NCBI GenBank assembly: GCA_003345555.1 | Contig: PRDJ01000023.1 | Location: 1 to 5,356, forward strand | Length of the DNA stretch: 5,356 bases | Direction of reading: 5' to 3' | From: Candidatus Thorarchaeota archaeon | GTDB lineage: Archaea; Asgardarchaeota; Thorarchaeia; Thorarchaeales; Thorarchaeaceae | In this document: in pieces, positions 1 through 5,356 of the stretch | Numbering within the stretch: position 1 is the first letter of the stretch | Layout: each line of letters begins with the position of its first letter | Position numbers and translations under genes: made by a program | The notes under the pieces: generated by a model | What the model saw: the letters and a program-made list of their open reading frames with translations, nothing else | Databases searched by the model: none | Told to the model about the DNA's origin: nothing

Positions 1-780
1 CGCGTTGACCCCGATACGGGTGAAATGCTATTGTCGGGAGCAGGCGAGCTACACGTGGAGGTCACCGTGGAGAAGCTGGCCAGAGAGGGTATCGATGTCG
101 TGCTCGGCAAGCCTATGGTCCTGCTGAGGGAACAGATGACAACAGATGGAACAACCTGCACAGCAGGCGGAGGCAAAGTGAGTCAATTCTCTGTGAAAGC
201 GGTAATAACACCAGATGAAGAGACAGTCCGTGGGCTCGGCTCAGTGCTTGACTCCGACACACGATCAGGATGCTATCTCGTGGATGCAACAAGAACGGTC
301 AATCCATTCAGAGACGAGGCTGAACCGATTCATGAGGCATTCAGCGCCCTAGTCGAAAGTGGTCCTGTATCGGGGGAACGCTTGCGCAAGATAACCATCA
401 TAATAGAGCAATTGGGATTGCGCGTCGAATCGCCAGAGACCTCTTGGCGCGATGTCACACAGCCGCTTCTTGATGCTGCACGAAAGTCCATGATGACAGG
501 AAAGCCAATCGTTCTTGAGCCATGGATACACCTTGAGATAAGTACACCCGAAGAACACGTGGGAACAATAACGGCGATAGTATCGAAGCGCCAAGGCAGA
601 GTCCTAGAGATAGATTCTGAAAGAACCCTGTATCGAGTTCGTGCTGAAATCCCCGTCAGAGAGTCATTCGGGCTTGCCACCGAGATAAGGACATCAACGT
701 CAGGCTGGGCGACTTGGGGAGCGAGAGCTGGTGGATATCGCAGAGTGGGTGCATCAGCAAACGAGCAGACGTTCACTTAG
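1..780 (+). CDS. Divergent translation elongation factor 2 homolog (aEF-2 paralog-like), C-terminal domains III-V; 5'-truncated by the window edge
   Basis: Frame 1 is open from base 1 (RVDPDTGE-MLLSGAGELHVE), matching the EF-2/EF-G domain III motif (ETGE..LSG[MA]GELHLE). So the ATG at 25 is internal. The domain IV/V motifs SGPVSGE, LEP..LEISTPEEHVG, SKRQGRV, AEIPVRESFGLATEIRTSTSG and GY are present. Stop TAG at 778-780. Confidence 0.92.
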   Translation, partial: RVDPDTGEMLLSGAGELHVEVTVEKLAREGIDVVLGKPMVLLREQMTTDGTTCTAGGGKVSQFSVKAVITPDEETVRGLGSVLDSDTRSGCYLVDATRTVNPFRDEAEPIHEAFSALVESGPVSGERLRKITIIIEQLGLRVESPETSWRDVTQPLLDAARKSMMTGKPIVLEPWIHLEISTPEEHVGTITAIVSKRQGRVLEIDSERTLYRVRAEIPVRESFGLATEIRTSTSGWATWGARAGGYRRVGASANEQTFT

Positions 781-781
781 A

Positions 782-3085
782 TCAGGTTCGAAGGTAGAAC
801 CGTCTGTTCATCTCCTCTCCTAGAAAAGCGACCACCCTTCTGTCGACCATCGCTACACTGTCCATCATGAGGAATGTGCGAGTAATGTTCGAGAATATGG
901 CATTCAGGTACGGCAGCGCCTTGGAGAGTTCAGATTGCTCTGTCATCTGAAGATATGAGTCAGTAATCTTCGTTAGGTTCATCCAATCCTCTGCGAGAAT
1001 GAAACTGTACTGACCTTCAGCAGAGGCTTCTGGCACAGATGGATACTTCGACCGGTCTATCACCGGCCCGTACTGCTTTTCAAGAGCAGCTGCGAATCTT
1101 AGCAGAACTCCCGAGAAGGAACTCGACGTCGCACGAATGAACTCCGAGGCCTCTTCGAATGGTGAGTCGGTGCTCTCCACTTTCTTTAGAGACACGGCGG
1201 CTTCGTAAAGTCCGGATGCGAGTTCGGAGAAGCTCTTGTGCTCGTAGAACTGCCTTATTGTTTGGGCTAACTGCGTCTGGGCTTCCCAATACTGAGCGAG
1301 GAGAGGATCAGCAAGGCGTACCATGTCATCTATCGGCGATAGGACTCTCAGTCCTGACTCCGGACTGACTGCTGGCGCGTTGAGCTTGGCAGTCGCGAGT
1401 CCCATCATAACGCTGGCAATCCCTGAGAGGTCAGATCGGTCCTCGATGATTCTTCTAGCCCGACGCGATAACTGAGTCCAAGACGAACTCACATATGGAA
1501 TAACAAGGCTTGCGCCCTGAATGAAGACGTTGTCATCACTGGGCGTAGCATCTGACAGCATCTTGTCCACATCATCAAGCAGACGAAGAAGTCGGGCGGG
1601 CATGGTCGTTCCGTGGCGCAGGCTGAGCCAGATGATATTGAAAGCTGCAATAGCGATCTCGGTGTAGGCACGACGATCCGTCGGCGACAGTCTGATGTAC
1701 TGGGCAAGCGCTTCTCTGAGCTGCTCTTCGGCATCGGCGTTCGATTCGTTTGAGGACCGCATAAGTGACAGTGCAAGACCCGCTCGACTGCTTATGAGCT
1801 CCAATTCTGAAATGCCCGCCTTGGCCAACAGATCTTCTCTTGCCTTGATAGCACGCTTGAATGCCTCTATGCCTACGTTCCAGAACTCGTTTGAGTCAGT
1901 AGAGAGACATATCCACCCGAGGGCGTGATCACATCTCGAAGCTTCTGGGCCGCAATCGAAGCCAGACTTCTCAAGGTTCTCAACAATGGACTTGGCTCCT
2001 TGAAGATAGCTGATGGCACGTTCAACACTAGCATGATCACCGAGCAGACCGTGTGCCAAGCCCAACGCCGCTAGGCACTTGTAGTGAAAGAACGACTGGT
2101 TTGCATTCATATCATGGAGAATCTGATATTCATCGGAGGCATCCCGTAGCCACCCAACTGCTTGGGGTACTGCCTCGCGCCAACCGGTCACCAAGATGTT
2201 GGACCCGATGTCAAGTAGTACCAGAGCCAAGTCAGAGCCGGTCCAAATTCCTGATTGTGTGCCCTCCTTGTACAATCTCGCAGCCTTGTCTGCAAGAATG
2301 CGTGCCGCCTCATAGGGAACGCCATCATCTCTTGTGTCATTTAGACTCAGCTGTAGAGCGGTCTGTGCGAGCCGTCTGGAGTCTTCACTCAACCGCGCTT
2401 TCCTATCTATTTCTTCAAGCATCTTTCGCGTCTCTTCGTACATTCCTAGCTCTGTGAGAGCACAGGCTTCATCAAATGCAATCTCATCTGCAAGAGACTC
2501 GAGCTTCATCTGGCGAGCCATAGCCAAGAGACGGTTCAGAAGCGCTTCTGCACAGTCAAAGAGTGCAGCATTCACAAGGTTGTATGTTAGATAGTGCACC
2601 TCATGGAGTGCAAGGATACTCGCCGGCTCATGGAATCGATTGAAAATCGCTTCAAGGGTTAGAAGTATCTCGTCTGTCAGAAAGGTGACAAGAGGGCGGA
2701 GATTGAGCCGGAGAGCCGTCTCCGTCGCCTGAGTGAGCTCTCCGAGCACATCAAGCAGCTGCGGCAATGCCTTCAGGTCGGGCAGGAGTTCTGATTCTGC
2801 TCGTCTGTACCCGCTTGTGTATCTGGTATCGAGCAGCATCACGAGCTCTGGCATGATTGGGTCTTGGCCGAATGAAAGCCGTACTGTCAGCTCCGTGAAT
2901 TTCGTGCTTGCGAGGCCCGGTCGTCTGAGTATGATTTCTTCGACCGCTCTTGCAAGACCGTATAGAGTCTCAGCATTGTCAGGGTCAGATGCGCCGGCGT
3001 TCTGAATTGCTGAAAGAGCATCATCGAGGGAGAGAGATGCACACAGGATGTCTCTCAGGGTGACCTGAACCAGCGAACCCACCAT
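782..3085 (-). CDS. Large alpha-helical, TPR-like repeat protein of unknown function (~767 aa)
   Basis: Uninterrupted 2.3-kb ORF, Ala/Leu/Glu-rich. It has several TPR-like helix pairs (FDEACALTELGMYEETRKMLEE; LAALGLAHGLLGDHASVERAISYLQGAKSI; DHALGWICL...GIEAFKRAIKA; AGLALSLM...AEEQLREALA). ATG at 3085 is preferred over GTG at 3091 because GGAGTG lies just upstream of the ATG. Stop TGA at 782-784. Confidence is high that it is coding; the TPR call is moderate. Confidence 0.8.
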   Translation of the reverse strand: MVGSLVQVTLRDILCASLSLDDALSAIQNAGASDPDNAETLYGLARAVEEIILRRPGLASTKFTELTVRLSFGQDPIMPELVMLLDTRYTSGYRRAESELLPDLKALPQLLDVLGELTQATETALRLNLRPLVTFLTDEILLTLEAIFNRFHEPASILALHEVHYLTYNLVNAALFDCAEALLNRLLAMARQMKLESLADEIAFDEACALTELGMYEETRKMLEEIDRKARLSEDSRRLAQTALQLSLNDTRDDGVPYEAARILADKAARLYKEGTQSGIWTGSDLALVLLDIGSNILVTGWREAVPQAVGWLRDASDEYQILHDMNANQSFFHYKCLAALGLAHGLLGDHASVERAISYLQGAKSIVENLEKSGFDCGPEASRCDHALGWICLSTDSNEFWNVGIEAFKRAIKAREDLLAKAGISELELISSRAGLALSLMRSSNESNADAEEQLREALAQYIRLSPTDRRAYTEIAIAAFNIIWLSLRHGTTMPARLLRLLDDVDKMLSDATPSDDNVFIQGASLVIPYVSSSWTQLSRRARRIIEDRSDLSGIASVMMGLATAKLNAPAVSPESGLRVLSPIDDMVRLADPLLAQYWEAQTQLAQTIRQFYEHKSFSELASGLYEAAVSLKKVESTDSPFEEASEFIRATSSSFSGVLLRFAAALEKQYGPVIDRSKYPSVPEASAEGQYSFILAEDWMNLTKITDSYLQMTEQSELSKALPYLNAIFSNITRTFLMMDSVAMVDRRVVAFLGEEMNRRFYLRT

Positions 3086-3094
3086 AGCCACTCC
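3086..3094 (-). promoter_or_regulatory. Putative Shine-Dalgarno (GGAGTG) for the helical-repeat gene
   Basis: The minus strand reads ctgagcGGAGTGgctATG, similar to the archaeal SD core GGAGGTG. Confidence 0.45.
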
Positions 3095-3127
3095 GCTCAG
3101 TCGTTGGTTTCTTCGTGATGAGTTCGG

Positions 3128-3140
3128 TTAAAAGCTTTGA
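3128..3140 (-). promoter_or_regulatory. Putative archaeal BRE/TATA promoter for the helical-repeat gene
   Basis: The minus strand reads tCAAAGC-TTTTAA-cc. The TTTTAA box (3133-3128) follows an A-rich BRE-like segment and ends 42 nt upstream of ATG 3085, within the 58-nt intergenic gap. Confidence 0.5.
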
Positions 3141-3143
3141 CAG

Positions 3144-3914
3144 TTATCCACTGACGAAAGGTCTCCATGCCCTAGAGGCCTCAGTTCCTCTCATCCGCTC
3201 CAGACTAACATAGTAGACTGGTTCAGCACCTGTGTCATCCATCTTGAACTTAAGTACTGAGTCAGTCAGGTAGGAGTAGGTTGCGTAGGTCTTTTCGTCG
3301 TGTACACCCTCCTCTAACACGAACATGATGCTATGTGAAATCTGTGTCACCCTGCCGCTGAGCCGCTGAATCGACCGTGGCAATGTCTCGGGACTCGAAT
3401 GAAGTATGAAAGTGGAGAGGCTATCAATCACTACTCTAGCACACACGAGCTTCTCAAGAGCTTCGGAAAGAACAATCCCCAGCTCTGTTATATCGTCTAT
3501 TTTCGATAACGAGTAAGCGGCCGTGGTCTTGGGTGCGCCCATACGCTCTGAATATGCATCAATGAACTTGAAGTAGCCTGCCTTCTCGCATGCTTCGATA
3601 GGCCACCCGTGCCTGCTCATGTCATTCCTGATCACCCTTGGCGACACATCCGTAGTGATGAAAACAGCAGGGAAGCCAAGGTTCAGCCCTTCTGCCAAGA
3701 ACGCCTCTGCGTAAGTTGTCTTACCGGATCCAAGGGGACCCACCAGCATGTACGATAGCTGGGTCAATTGGCCAAACTGCACCATGTCGCCTATCATGGG
3801 GTGAACGTTTACGGGGCGGCCTAGACAAGGTCCCACGATGCTCTTTTGAGCTTCTGGCACTGGGCTCTTGCGTGTACCTGCTTTCTTTCGTGTGGGTTGA
3901 GTTGGCCTCTTCAT
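3144..3914 (-). CDS. KaiC/RAD55-family (RecA superfamily) single-domain ATPase, CII-like and divergent
   Basis: Walker A GPLGSGKT (aa 59-66), FIDAYS, Walker B VVIDSLS (aa 161-167), SYLTDSV, and an Arg-finger-region motif ERMRGT. The usual TxEE motif is replaced by TTDV. It has a basic N-terminal extension of ~30 aa. ATG at 3914, TAA at 3144-3146. Confidence 0.88.
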   Translation of the reverse strand: MKRPTQPTRKKAGTRKSPVPEAQKSIVGPCLGRPVNVHPMIGDMVQFGQLTQLSYMLVGPLGSGKTTYAEAFLAEGLNLGFPAVFITTDVSPRVIRNDMSRHGWPIEACEKAGYFKFIDAYSERMGAPKTTAAYSLSKIDDITELGIVLSEALEKLVCARVVIDSLSTFILHSSPETLPRSIQRLSGRVTQISHSIMFVLEEGVHDEKTYATYSYLTDSVLKFKMDDTGAEPVYYVSLERMRGTEASRAWRPFVSG

Positions 3915-3938
3915 GACCTATGCTTCCGTTTCTAGATG

Positions 3939-4685
3939 CTAGTGGCCCGGAGTGATTTCACCTGGCCAGACTCGTATTCCCTCATCAGTGATTCTCATAG
4001 AATGAATGCGTGAACTGTGTTTCGAGCCCCTAAGCTTCAGGACTTCGATAGAACGTGACCTAGATGTGTCACTGATTTTCTCATTGTAGAGAACGATGAC
4101 GCCTGATGCAAGGAAAGCTTCAATGTCAAAGACACCGAGCCCTGTATCCTGTGCGGGTATCTCACTAGTCAGGAGCAGTGTGCAGCCAGCCCGTGAGATC
4201 GAAGCACAGAGCTTGAAGAATTCCTCCCGAAGGATATCACGACTCCTGAACTTGTATGCCATAATCGACAGCGTGTCAATGACGACCCTTTTTGCATTGA
4301 GCCTCTTAACGTGGTTCAAGATGATTGCCTCAAGACCAGAAAGGTCAAAGCTGGGGTATTCCCCTACTGTAACCGGCGTAACTTCCTTTGACGGCGATAA
4401 GTCGACTATCGCTAGTCTGCCGGCTCGCTCCAGTTGGGCAAGGTCCATTCCGAACCTGAGCATGTTTCGTCGGATTAGGTGAGGCGGCTCCTCCAAAGTC
4501 ACCAACACGCCGGACTCATTATAGAGCGTTGCACCCTTAAACAGAAACTGGATTGCAAGGATGCTCTTCCCTGTGCCCGCCTTCCCTGCGATGAGAATCG
4601 TATCACCTCTGGGAAAGCCTCCCTCTATCAGCTCATCCAAGCCGGGAATACCGGTCTTAACGCGCTCAATGGTAAACTCGCTCAT
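3939..4685 (-). CDS. kaiC: KaiC-family single-domain ATPase, CI-like
   Basis: RVKTGIPGLDELIEGGFP, Walker A GKAGTGKS, catalytic VTLEE, FDLSGL, Walker B VVIDTLS, EAFLASGVIVL and EVLKLRGSKH..RITDEGI all match the KaiC domain. The symbol denotes family membership only; clock function is not demonstrated. Confidence 0.93.
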   Translation of the reverse strand: MSEFTIERVKTGIPGLDELIEGGFPRGDTILIAGKAGTGKSILAIQFLFKGATLYNESGVLVTLEEPPHLIRRNMLRFGMDLAQLERAGRLAIVDLSPSKEVTPVTVGEYPSFDLSGLEAIILNHVKRLNAKRVVIDTLSIMAYKFRSRDILREEFFKLCASISRAGCTLLLTSEIPAQDTGLGVFDIEAFLASGVIVLYNEKISDTSRSRSIEVLKLRGSKHSSRIHSMRITDEGIRVWPGEITPGH

Positions 4686-5014
4686 TCTGCTGCACCTTTC
4701 TTCTTTGTCACCTTAGCCCCAAGAATCATCTTGAGGAGCATCTCAGGCTCTGGTATGCCAGTGATTGAAACCCCTCCGATCATAACAGTCGGCAGAGCAA
4801 AGATTCCGTACTTCTCTGCGGCCTCGGGGCTCTCAGTCACGTTGATTACTGTAAACTTGAATACTGAGGCATCGAAGTCCTCAATAGTTTCTCGTATCAC
4901 CTCCTCGGCTCTTGGACAGAACACGCACGCATCTGACTTGAAGAGGAAAATCTCTATTATTGTTGGTTCCTCTGCCTCTTCAACCTTTGCGGCTCTCTCT
5001 CTTTTCTTTGGCAA
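4682..5014 (-). CDS. Thioredoxin/glutaredoxin-fold protein with CxxC (CVFC); KaiB/SasA-type fold relative
   Basis: IEIFLFKSDA-CVFC-PRAEEV, INVTESPEAAEKYGIFA-LPT-V (cis-Pro motif) and ITGIPEPEML give a full Trx fold. Start is placed at TTG 5014 (MPKKRERAAK..., 110 aa) because AGGAG lies 10 nt upstream. The ORF track start is GTG 5071. The stop overlaps the kaiC start as ATGA at 4682-4685. Confidence 0.85.
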   Translation of the reverse strand: MPKKRERAAKVEEAEEPTIIEIFLFKSDACVFCPRAEEVIRETIEDFDASVFKFTVINVTESPEAAEKYGIFALPTVMIGGVSITGIPEPEMLLKMILGAKVTKKKGAAE

Positions 5015-5024
5015 AAAGGATATG

Positions 5025-5029
5025 CTCCT
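5025..5029 (-). promoter_or_regulatory. Putative Shine-Dalgarno AGGAG for the thioredoxin-fold gene
   Basis: The minus strand reads ttcAGGAGcatatcctttTTGccaaag. Confidence 0.4.
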
Positions 5030-5112
5030 GAACCGAGGGAATGGCAAAGAGAGAATCCTCTTGCCTGTCACTTGAAGCTTTTGTAGGTGTTACCTAGATA
5101 TTGGAGCTGACG

Positions 5113-5356
5113 CTATGCTCTCCGACGCATTAGTGCTCTAATCTTTGTGGCTGCTTTACCTAAAGCTCTTGAGTGATATCTCACGTTGCGGTCCATAATG
5201 GCGGCCAGAATGATTGGCTGTTCCTTGCCAGACGATATCTTCCTGAATACGGCTTTTCCGCCGGCACAGCGGACAGAGATATCCTTGAGTTCACCCAGTC
5301 CGAGCTCATTCCGCATCCTCTCGACGGAGGAGGCTACGTAGCCGGACATCGCTGCC
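5113..5356 (-). CDS. Roadblock/LC7 (MglB/LAMTOR-like) domain protein; 5'-truncated by the window edge
   Basis: The frame stays open past ATG 5349 to the edge (A-A-M-S-G...). AAMSG..ASSVERMRNELGLGELKDISVRCAGGKAVFRKI....ILAAIMD..V fits the Roadblock pattern (AAMS helix, ELGLGEL, beta hairpins, C-terminal helix). Stop TAG at 5113-5115. Confidence 0.82.
   Translation of the reverse strand, partial: AAMSGYVASSVERMRNELGLGELKDISVRCAGGKAVFRKISSGKEQPIILAAIMDRNVRYHSRALGKAATKIRALMRRRA

Follow-up and report, generated by a model that had tools for sequence, protein, structure and literature searches.

A conserved Thorarchaeota operon pairing a thioredoxin with a CI-type KaiC ATPase and a divergent KaiC-like paralogue

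We analysed a window of 5,356 nucleotides (nt; the window is this whole stretch) from Candidatus Thorarchaeota archaeon (assembly GCA_003345555.1, contig PRDJ01000023.1, positions 1-5,356, forward strand). Reading of its open reading frames placed three co-oriented genes on the minus strand, encoding first a thioredoxin-fold protein (Trx), then a CI-type KaiC ATPase (KaiC-1) and a second KaiC-like protein (KaiC-2). This triplet appears to be the core of an operon that also encodes a Roadblock/LC7 protein and a tetratricopeptide repeat (TPR)-like protein and adjoins a Rab-like small GTPase (Thor-Rab). The operon, conserved in Thorarchaeota, probably encodes an ATPase switch of the KaiC type that has a thioredoxin as its partner, includes a degenerate paralogue and is connected to the Roadblock protein and the Rab-like GTPase. 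In full-text searches of the literature we came across no account of a Trx-KaiC module from Asgard archaea. A previous interpretation of the same stretch (the sequence-only reading) had pointed out the tight linkage of the three genes, the ATGA overlap, the 24-nt gap and the motifs FDLSGL, IEAFLAS, LKLRG, IDSLS, SYLTD and RMRG, all of which we found, and had rightly suspected an Asgard archaeon, here a member of the Thorarchaeota.

A scan of species-representative genomes yielded 74 loci, almost all from Thorarchaeota (about 70 Thorarchaeota species genomes), and a synteny table was made over these loci using tblastn with seven query proteins. All contigs that are long enough have one single arrangement: Rab-like GTPase (opposite strand), Roadblock, Trx, KaiC-1, KaiC-2, a protein of ~766 amino acids (aa) and an elongation factor 2 (EF-2) paralogue (opposite strand). 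The survey of Asgard gene neighbourhoods that the sequence-only reading had proposed as a check therefore found the triplet conserved in every sufficiently long Thorarchaeota contig. This order is conserved far beyond chance, and the operon is real and strongly conserved. The 4-nt overlap of the Trx stop codon and the KaiC-1 start codon is seen in most of the 53 orthologous loci analysed and suggests translational coupling of the two genes. At one distant locus (L078, KaiC-2 50% identical), the GTPase, Roadblock, Trx, KaiC-1 and KaiC-2 genes share one strand and the large TPR-like protein is absent.

The complete genome CP070658.1 has no strong PF06745 matches besides the two ATPases, which score 235 and 108 bits, the runner-up being at 42 bits. 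Among the matches listed for a sample of 300 genomes of the phylum, KaiC-1 orthologues (at least 64% identity) lie beside a Trx subfamily scoring 131-170 bits, followed by a sharp drop to other homologues (at most 46% identity for KaiC-1 and at most 68 bits for Trx). Trx proteins of this subfamily were found solely beside KaiC-1, and other Trx-fold genes in the same genomes stay at or below 68 bits. Matches to CI-type single-domain KaiCs at E <= 1e-30 are present in 203 of the 300 Asgard genomes; such proteins are common in Asgard archaea, which makes KaiC-1 one of a broad family rather than a unique fission product.

KaiC-1 and KaiC-2 within the KaiC family

Judged by sequence, KaiC-1 is a CI-type single-domain KaiC. 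It scores 230.8 bits on PF06745 (Pfam gathering cut-off 26.6), and searches against the PDB gave E ~1e-42 for CI structures solved in isolation and 1e-59 to 1e-74 for two-domain KaiCs, the best region always being CI; 5JWO and 5JWQ are among these matches. Compared by phmmer with 94 two-domain KaiCs, KaiC-1 has a mean of 147.5 bits to the CI domains and 66.3 bits to the CII domains, and on profile hidden Markov models (HMMs) it scores 242 bits for CI and 144 for CII. It keeps the Walker A motif (GKAGTGKS), the EE pair (TLEEPP), Walker B (VVIDTLS), the arginine finger (LKLRGSKH) and the full C-terminal hairpin. Its B-loop aligns to the B-loop insertion of CI that is missing in CII and carries SFDLSGL, so that Walker A, EE pair, arginine finger and a B-loop insertion with FDLS, the features of CI-type proteins, are all present. 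Mean column identity over 36 orthologues is 87%, and P111, S112, F113, D114, L115, S116 and L118 of the B-loop are invariant. In maximum-likelihood trees KaiC-1 falls within the CI+CII clade (support 100 in the Shimodaira-Hasegawa-like approximate likelihood ratio test, SH-aLRT), on the CI side (92-94), alongside other Asgard single-domain KaiCs. The sequence-only reading had likened the first ATPase to CI, and both the profile scores and the trees bear this out. KaiC-1 lies below the cut-offs of bona fide circadian KaiC (154.6 versus 546 bits for TIGR02655 and 197.9 versus 408 bits for NF006799, with only the CI half matched) and of the thermo_KaiC families (156.8 versus 307 bits for TIGR03877 and 32.7 versus 232 bits for TIGR03878).

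The two-domain KaiCs closest to KaiC-1 (P0121 and P0122) and the single-domain P0341 have unrelated gene neighbourhoods. As an exception, a 198-aa protein encoded upstream of P0122 and overlapping its start (L084, 5433-7497, plus strand) shows a sub-threshold KaiB match of 20.7 bits. P0122, whose CI domain is among the closest to KaiC-1, is followed at this locus by two unannotated genes of ~90-100 aa each.

KaiC-2 is a member of the same Pfam family (100.3 bits on PF06745, same cut-off) that also matches DUF7504. It keeps Walker A (GPLGSGKT) and RMRGT, its first ~38 residues are not conserved, and in the comparative alignment an invariant T-T-D-V takes the place of the EE pair. The chain stops ~12 residues past RMRGT, without C-terminal hairpin or A-loop. 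Homologues with 66-99% identity come almost only from Thorarchaeota metagenome-assembled genomes, and a search of 1.84 billion cluster representatives gave three matches at E <= 1e-30. The next relatives are generic single-domain KaiC-like proteins with 30-38% identity. An AlphaFold2 (AF2) model from a 13-row alignment was poor, with a predicted local distance difference test score (pLDDT) of 46.7.

The sequence-only reading had taken KaiC-2 to resemble CII, an assignment that our data do not support. The CI profile outscores the CII profile (78.8 versus 51.8 bits), and phmmer ranks CI above CII in 85 of the 94 two-domain KaiCs (38.2 versus 14.4 bits). The best PDB match is PH0284 (E = 4e-21), and all two-domain chains listed align over CI. 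At the 15-column deletion of CII, KaiC-2 has a long loop, even longer than that of CI. Its SYLTD sits in the register of the CI motif EFVAD, with a gap at the CII-specific extra residue of the phosphosite loop, and neither Ser nor Thr is conserved in the family (Thr is replaced in most relatives, and Ser by Ala in the AYSAD of L076). The Ser-Thr phosphorylation loop of CII (HIS-T-I/L-TD type) and the A-loop/tail that mark a circadian KaiC are absent. Scores for circadian KaiC are far below the cut-offs given above (33.5 bits for TIGR02655 and 53.8 for NF006799, with only the CI half matched), as is that for TIGR03877 (thermo_KaiC_1, 80.6 versus 307 bits), and TIGR03878 gave no match. The phylogeny against separated CI and CII domains that the sequence-only reading had proposed placed KaiC-1 with CI and KaiC-2 outside the CI+CII clade (SH-aLRT 100), among generic archaeal single-domain KaiC-like proteins with PF06745 and DUF7504. 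Constraining KaiC-2 to group with CII gave p = 0.231 in the approximately unbiased (AU) test with 118 rows and p = 0.028 with 90 rows and better sampling, so that this grouping is disfavoured, though not decisively excluded.

The thioredoxin and its predicted docking on KaiC-1

Trx carries a C-V-F-C active site (4916-4927) and an ALPT cis-Pro motif, and scores 34.7 bits on PF13192 (Thioredoxin_3; cut-off 24.8). CxFCP is kept in all 64 orthologues examined, as is the cis-Pro. The AF2 model (pLDDT 86.9) has the minimal thioredoxin fold, with the order beta-alpha-beta-alpha-beta-beta-alpha. The top 50 Foldseek matches listed for the PDB are all thioredoxins or relatives with this fold (template modelling (TM) scores of 0.75-0.81 to thioredoxins), with neither KaiB nor SasA among them. 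Trx is below the threshold of the KaiB family PF07689 (21.1 bits versus a 27-bit cut-off) and below that of the MJ0307 family TIGR00411, though the latter is its best NCBIfam match (51.7 versus 92.75 bits). From sequence matches and the predicted fold, Trx is an ordinary redox-type thioredoxin with CxxC and cis-Pro, and its likeness to KaiB is at the superfamily level only.

No ATG is present ahead of the fold in the Trx gene (4966-5071, minus strand), and orthologues mostly seem to use TTG or GTG. The N-terminal tail is variable in orthologues, acidic or Lys-rich and 20-40 residues long, and acidic in the window copy. The next-best matches to the Trx profile in other Asgard genomes (62-68 bits) lie inside frames of ~560-700 aa (for example G256:C215:5682-5930 and G292:C25:57092-57343), which may be Trx-domain fusion proteins of unknown kind.

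The B-loop of KaiC is the site bound by fold-switched KaiB and by the thioredoxin-like domain of SasA. We modelled the complex of Trx and KaiC-1 with 36-row alignments for both proteins, three runs and three controls. The interaction prediction score from aligned errors (ipSAE) was 0.70 in three runs and 0.00 in the best control, both partner-swap controls also giving 0.00. Among solved complexes 58 of 80 attain this mark, and among mismatched pairs 2 of 110; this calibration holds only roughly here because our own alignments were supplied to the model. The three runs share at least 99% of their contacts, and the pLDDT of the partners is at least 85. The modelled interface is formed by residues 94-124 of KaiC-1, where the error is smallest at 112-118 (SFDLSGL), and by residues 9-20 (CxxC), 43-60 (the cis-Pro loop) and 64-73 of Trx, a face that corresponds to the canonical substrate groove. 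It takes in the residues that are most conserved in each protein. The active-site face of Trx is thus predicted to dock on the KaiC-1 B-loop, the KaiB/SasA site. The sequence-only reading had proposed a KaiB-like partner; the docking on a CI-type B-loop agrees with it in the model, the family assignment does not, since Trx is below the KaiB threshold and folds like a thioredoxin. What survives, if the model is right, is the same docking site used by a different family.

Outside Thorarchaeota, a CxxC Trx is encoded directly upstream of a CI-type KaiC in 3 of the 18 Asgard CI-type KaiC loci examined; at the other 15, Trx, Roadblock and GTPase were not detected with the profiles used. Two of the three (L118, 3230-6412, plus strand; L129, 4259-7484, minus strand) have a Trx with CGFC, then a CI-type KaiC with F-E-Q for the EE pair, then a Gtr1/RagA-like GTPase. 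The third (L126, 4255-6385, minus strand) has a Trx-like gene lacking CxxC, a Trx with CAFC, a CI-type KaiC and a KaiC-like/DUF7504 protein with the Walker A motif GSGRT (Lys to Arg); from its gene content and motifs it is an apparently independently built triplet of Trx, active KaiC and degenerate KaiC. In the trees, the three KaiCs share a CI-containing subclade with KaiC-1. The independent recurrence of Trx-KaiC pairs in three Asgard genomes supports a functional link between Trx and KaiC, and possibly a GTPase. The clusters of L118 and L129 also include two small unknown proteins and a ~160-aa unknown protein.

A candidate switch and the alternatives

In the switch that we propose, KaiC-1 would be catalytically competent; judging from its analogues PH0186 and the CI domain of KaiC, it would most likely assemble into a hexameric ring and serve as a slow ATPase switch. 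Trx, translationally coupled to KaiC-1, would clamp the B-loop in its CxxC/cis-Pro substrate groove, as in the model. Given this predicted clamping, the redox state of CxxC could gate the interaction or be its readout. KaiC-2 would bind nucleotide and most likely serves as a paralogue with a regulatory or adaptor role, either within a hetero-oligomer or as a second ring. The TPR-like protein and the Roadblock protein may scaffold the module and couple it to the GTPase.

This arrangement can be compared with several known systems. As in the cyanobacterial clock, where fold-switched KaiB or SasA binds the CI domain of KaiC, a small gene with a thioredoxin fold lies directly upstream of a CI-type KaiC, and docking is predicted on the homologous B-loop, with FDLSGL kept. 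In contrast to the clock, the partner falls short of the Pfam threshold for KaiB and is a genuine thioredoxin with CxxC and cis-Pro, KaiC is single-domain and lacks CII, phosphosites and KaiA, and the modelled face of Trx is the substrate groove, so that neither fold switching nor rhythmicity is implied. KaiB occurs only with full-length KaiC (Schmelling et al. 2017, PMC5520375). The Pyrococcus horikoshii proteins PH0186 (2ZTS) and PH0284 (2DR3) are likewise one-domain KaiC proteins of ~250 aa (E = 1e-45 between KaiC-1 and PH0186), but KaiC-1 is nearer to bacterial CI domains and the Pyrococcus proteins are not known to have a Trx partner. Makarova, Galperin and Koonin (2017, mBio 8:e01959-17, as cited in PMC5847659 and PMC6393860) reportedly described archaeal KaiC-like ATPases as signal-transduction hubs, in which operons join single-domain KaiCs and partly inactivated paralogues to candidate proteins for input and output. 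The Thorarchaeota operon shares these traits and differs in being a specific, lineage-wide set (Roadblock, Trx, CI-type KaiC, degenerate KaiC, TPR and Rab-like GTPase) that none of the papers searched describes, with one KaiC pair and no expanded family in the complete genome CP070658.1. Finally, the leading Roadblock/LC7 gene, back-to-back with a Rab-like GTPase (Thor-Rab in SMTZ1-45), resembles the switch of MglA/MglB-type GTPases and Roadblock proteins, for which, as for Thor-Rab, a KaiC/Trx arm is undescribed.

KaiC-family ATPases have been proposed as the chief signalling hubs of archaea, but to our knowledge almost none has defined partners. The module, present in all Thorarchaeota examined, offers a KaiC testable ones: a CxxC Trx, a degenerate paralogue, a TPR scaffold, a Roadblock protein and a Rab-like GTPase that has been crystallised. 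If Trx binds the B-loop, this would link the interaction of KaiB and SasA with KaiC to an ancestral-looking thioredoxin partner, suggest redox input, and provide a first candidate regulatory circuit for Asgard small GTPases, which is relevant to models of eukaryogenesis. We regard as unlikely a more far-reaching version, in which the redox-active Trx is a KaiB/SasA-like reader of a single-ring CI-type KaiC with CxxC gating the B-loop docking, the switch controls the Rab-like GTPase through KaiC-2, TPR and Roadblock, and the module represents a thioredoxin-partner state ancestral to KaiB-type partners as well as the first upstream regulator to be identified for a Rab-like GTPase of Asgard archaea.

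Several observations weigh against the switch as proposed. By fold search Trx is an ordinary thioredoxin, and the alignments of KaiC-1 and KaiC-2 have no conserved Cys, so that neither is an obvious disulfide substrate; the target would be elsewhere, or CxxC would act as a sensor. Conserved Cys are found in other proteins of the cluster, namely Roadblock (97%), the Rab-like GTPase (95%) and the TPR-like protein (84-90%, two positions), which are possible thioredoxin targets as far as alignments can tell. The score of the complex may come from the memory that the model has of solved KaiB-CI complexes, and its calibration is a rough one. The Asp of KaiC-2 matches the Asp found at the first EE position in many single-domain KaiC-like proteins, and KaiC-2 may retain residual ATP hydrolysis. 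The interaction of KaiC-1 with KaiC-2 and the link to the GTPase are what we infer from gene order, and the RNA-library contigs discussed below are strandless, with DNA carry-over possible.

Some of these points would also fit a thioredoxin with general or housekeeping duties that has no more than the transcript in common with the KaiC pair; the pair would then work without it, and the modelled interface would be an artefact. Fold matches and active site are canonical, neither ATPase offers a conserved Cys, and KaiB-CI structures may have shaped the complex score. We find this doubtful in view of the invariant adjacency with overlapping stop and start codons in ~64 species genomes, the restriction of the Trx subfamily (131-170 bits) to the neighbourhood of KaiC-1 while other Trx-fold genes reach 68 bits at most, the recurrence of Trx-KaiC pairs in three distant Asgard genomes, and partner-swap controls that both gave 0.00.

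The sequence-only reading had suggested a timer of KaiBC type, with CI and CII carried by KaiC-1 and KaiC-2, each a gene of its own, and Trx as an unfused KaiB-like partner; the clock ATPase would here be in a state before fusion or after fission. KaiC-1 is indeed CI-type, Trx precedes it as kaiB precedes kaiC and is modelled on its B-loop, the window SYLTD is similar to the STLTD of CII, and one AU test (p = 0.231) did not reject KaiC-2 with CII; all the same, this scenario is very unlikely. KaiC-2 is closer to CI than to CII by profile and in 85 of 94 phmmer comparisons, has a CI-length loop at the CII deletion, is missing both the EE pair and the additional residue of the CII phosphosite loop, shows no conserved Ser/Thr, ends without C-terminal hairpin or A-loop, and lies outside the CI+CII clade (better-sampled AU p = 0.028), and with CI-type single-domain KaiCs in 203 of 300 Asgard genomes KaiC-1 is no special fission product. 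With KaiC-2 not CII-like and Trx a canonical thioredoxin, the pre-fusion or post-fission idea lacks support, and tandem single-domain KaiC genes should not be read as a CI/CII split. That both ATPases are RadA/Rad55-type recombination paralogues acting in DNA repair seems scarcely credible, even though NCBI labels many KaiC-2 orthologues as RAD55 family ATPase, both proteins belong to the RecA superfamily and KaiC-1 has weak DnaB_C, RadA and RadB matches. KaiC-1 scores 230.8 bits on the KaiC Pfam family and 16 on the RadA/RadB NCBIfam models (cut-offs 259-278), no DNA-binding domain is present, the neighbours are signalling proteins (Roadblock, GTPase, TPR) and not repair genes, and other, weaker RecA-superfamily loci exist elsewhere in CP070658.1.

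Gene layout, neighbours and expression

Features of the window of contig PRDJ01000023.1, listed in operon order
Feature	Position	Strand	Remarks
Roadblock/LC7 (MglB-like), C-terminal part	5113..5355	-	Truncated at window end; heads the conserved same-strand row
Trx-fold gene	4682..5014 from TTG (probable start), or 4682..5071 from in-frame GTG	-	PF13192
Trx/KaiC-1 stop/start overlap, ATGA	4682..4685	-	Trx TGA shares letters with KaiC-1 ATG; direct reading
KaiC-1, 248 aa	3939..4685	-	PF06745; CI-type single-domain KaiC ATPase, by sequence
KaiC-1 B-loop, residues 98-118, PSKEVTPVTVGEYPSFDLSGL	4332..4394	-	Predicted Trx docking site
KaiC-1/KaiC-2 spacer, exactly 24 nt	3915..3938	-	Direct reading
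KaiC-2, 256 aa	3144..3914	-	PF06745 and DUF7504; divergent, Thorarchaeota-specific KaiC-like P-loop protein
TPR-like protein, 769 aa, all-helical	782..3091	-	Same-strand row ends here; ESM Atlas neighbours
EF-2/EF-G paralogue, C-terminal part	1..780	+	Convergent to the operon; PF00679, PF14492; conserved neighbour, not counted in the module

The Roadblock fragment has no Pfam match on its own, shows 79% identity to the Roadblock gene of CP070658.1 (tblastn), and its orthologues carry PF03259. The operon Roadblock protein has no match in the PDB, which rules out that it is the published Thor-RB or a solved Asgard Roadblock protein. The adjacent GTPase in SMTZ1-45 is Thor-Rab (PDB 7EZB, E = 1.2e-113), the crystal structure of which was described by Tran et al. 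(2024, PMC10933270); KaiC is not mentioned in that paper.

For the 769-aa protein no Pfam match was found. Its ESM Atlas neighbours belong to TPR families (feature score 0.95, structural TM 0.43-0.51), so that TPR-like is a lead only. The gene is found downstream of KaiC-2 in every Thorarchaeota locus that is long enough.

The window stretch is present in wetland metagenomes, and RNA-library contigs from two wetland studies lie on the genes of Trx, KaiC-1, KaiC-2, the TPR-like protein and the EF-2 paralogue. One of them (3028-3286) spans the junction of the KaiC-2 and TPR-like genes; contigs reaching across from Trx to KaiC-1 or from KaiC-1 to KaiC-2 extend less than 31 letters from the junction on one side and were not counted as bridges. 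These strandless contigs are consistent with transcription of the locus, and gaps between them (for example 5013-5356 and most of the TPR-like gene) are no evidence of silence.

The EF-2 paralogue (109 bits on TIGR00490, cut-off 738) occupies the same place, convergent to the operon, in all Thorarchaeota loci. Its copy in CP070658.1 has 568 aa and lacks GTP_EFTU, and that of another genome has 693 aa with GTP_EFTU (L003, 11074-12780; L004, 11050-13131). In the closest long contigs (L001 and L002, 2172-3505, minus strand), a Cas12f1/TnpB-like gene and a second Arf/Ras-like GTPase with a WD40 propeller are encoded just upstream of the Rab-like GTPase and Roadblock genes.

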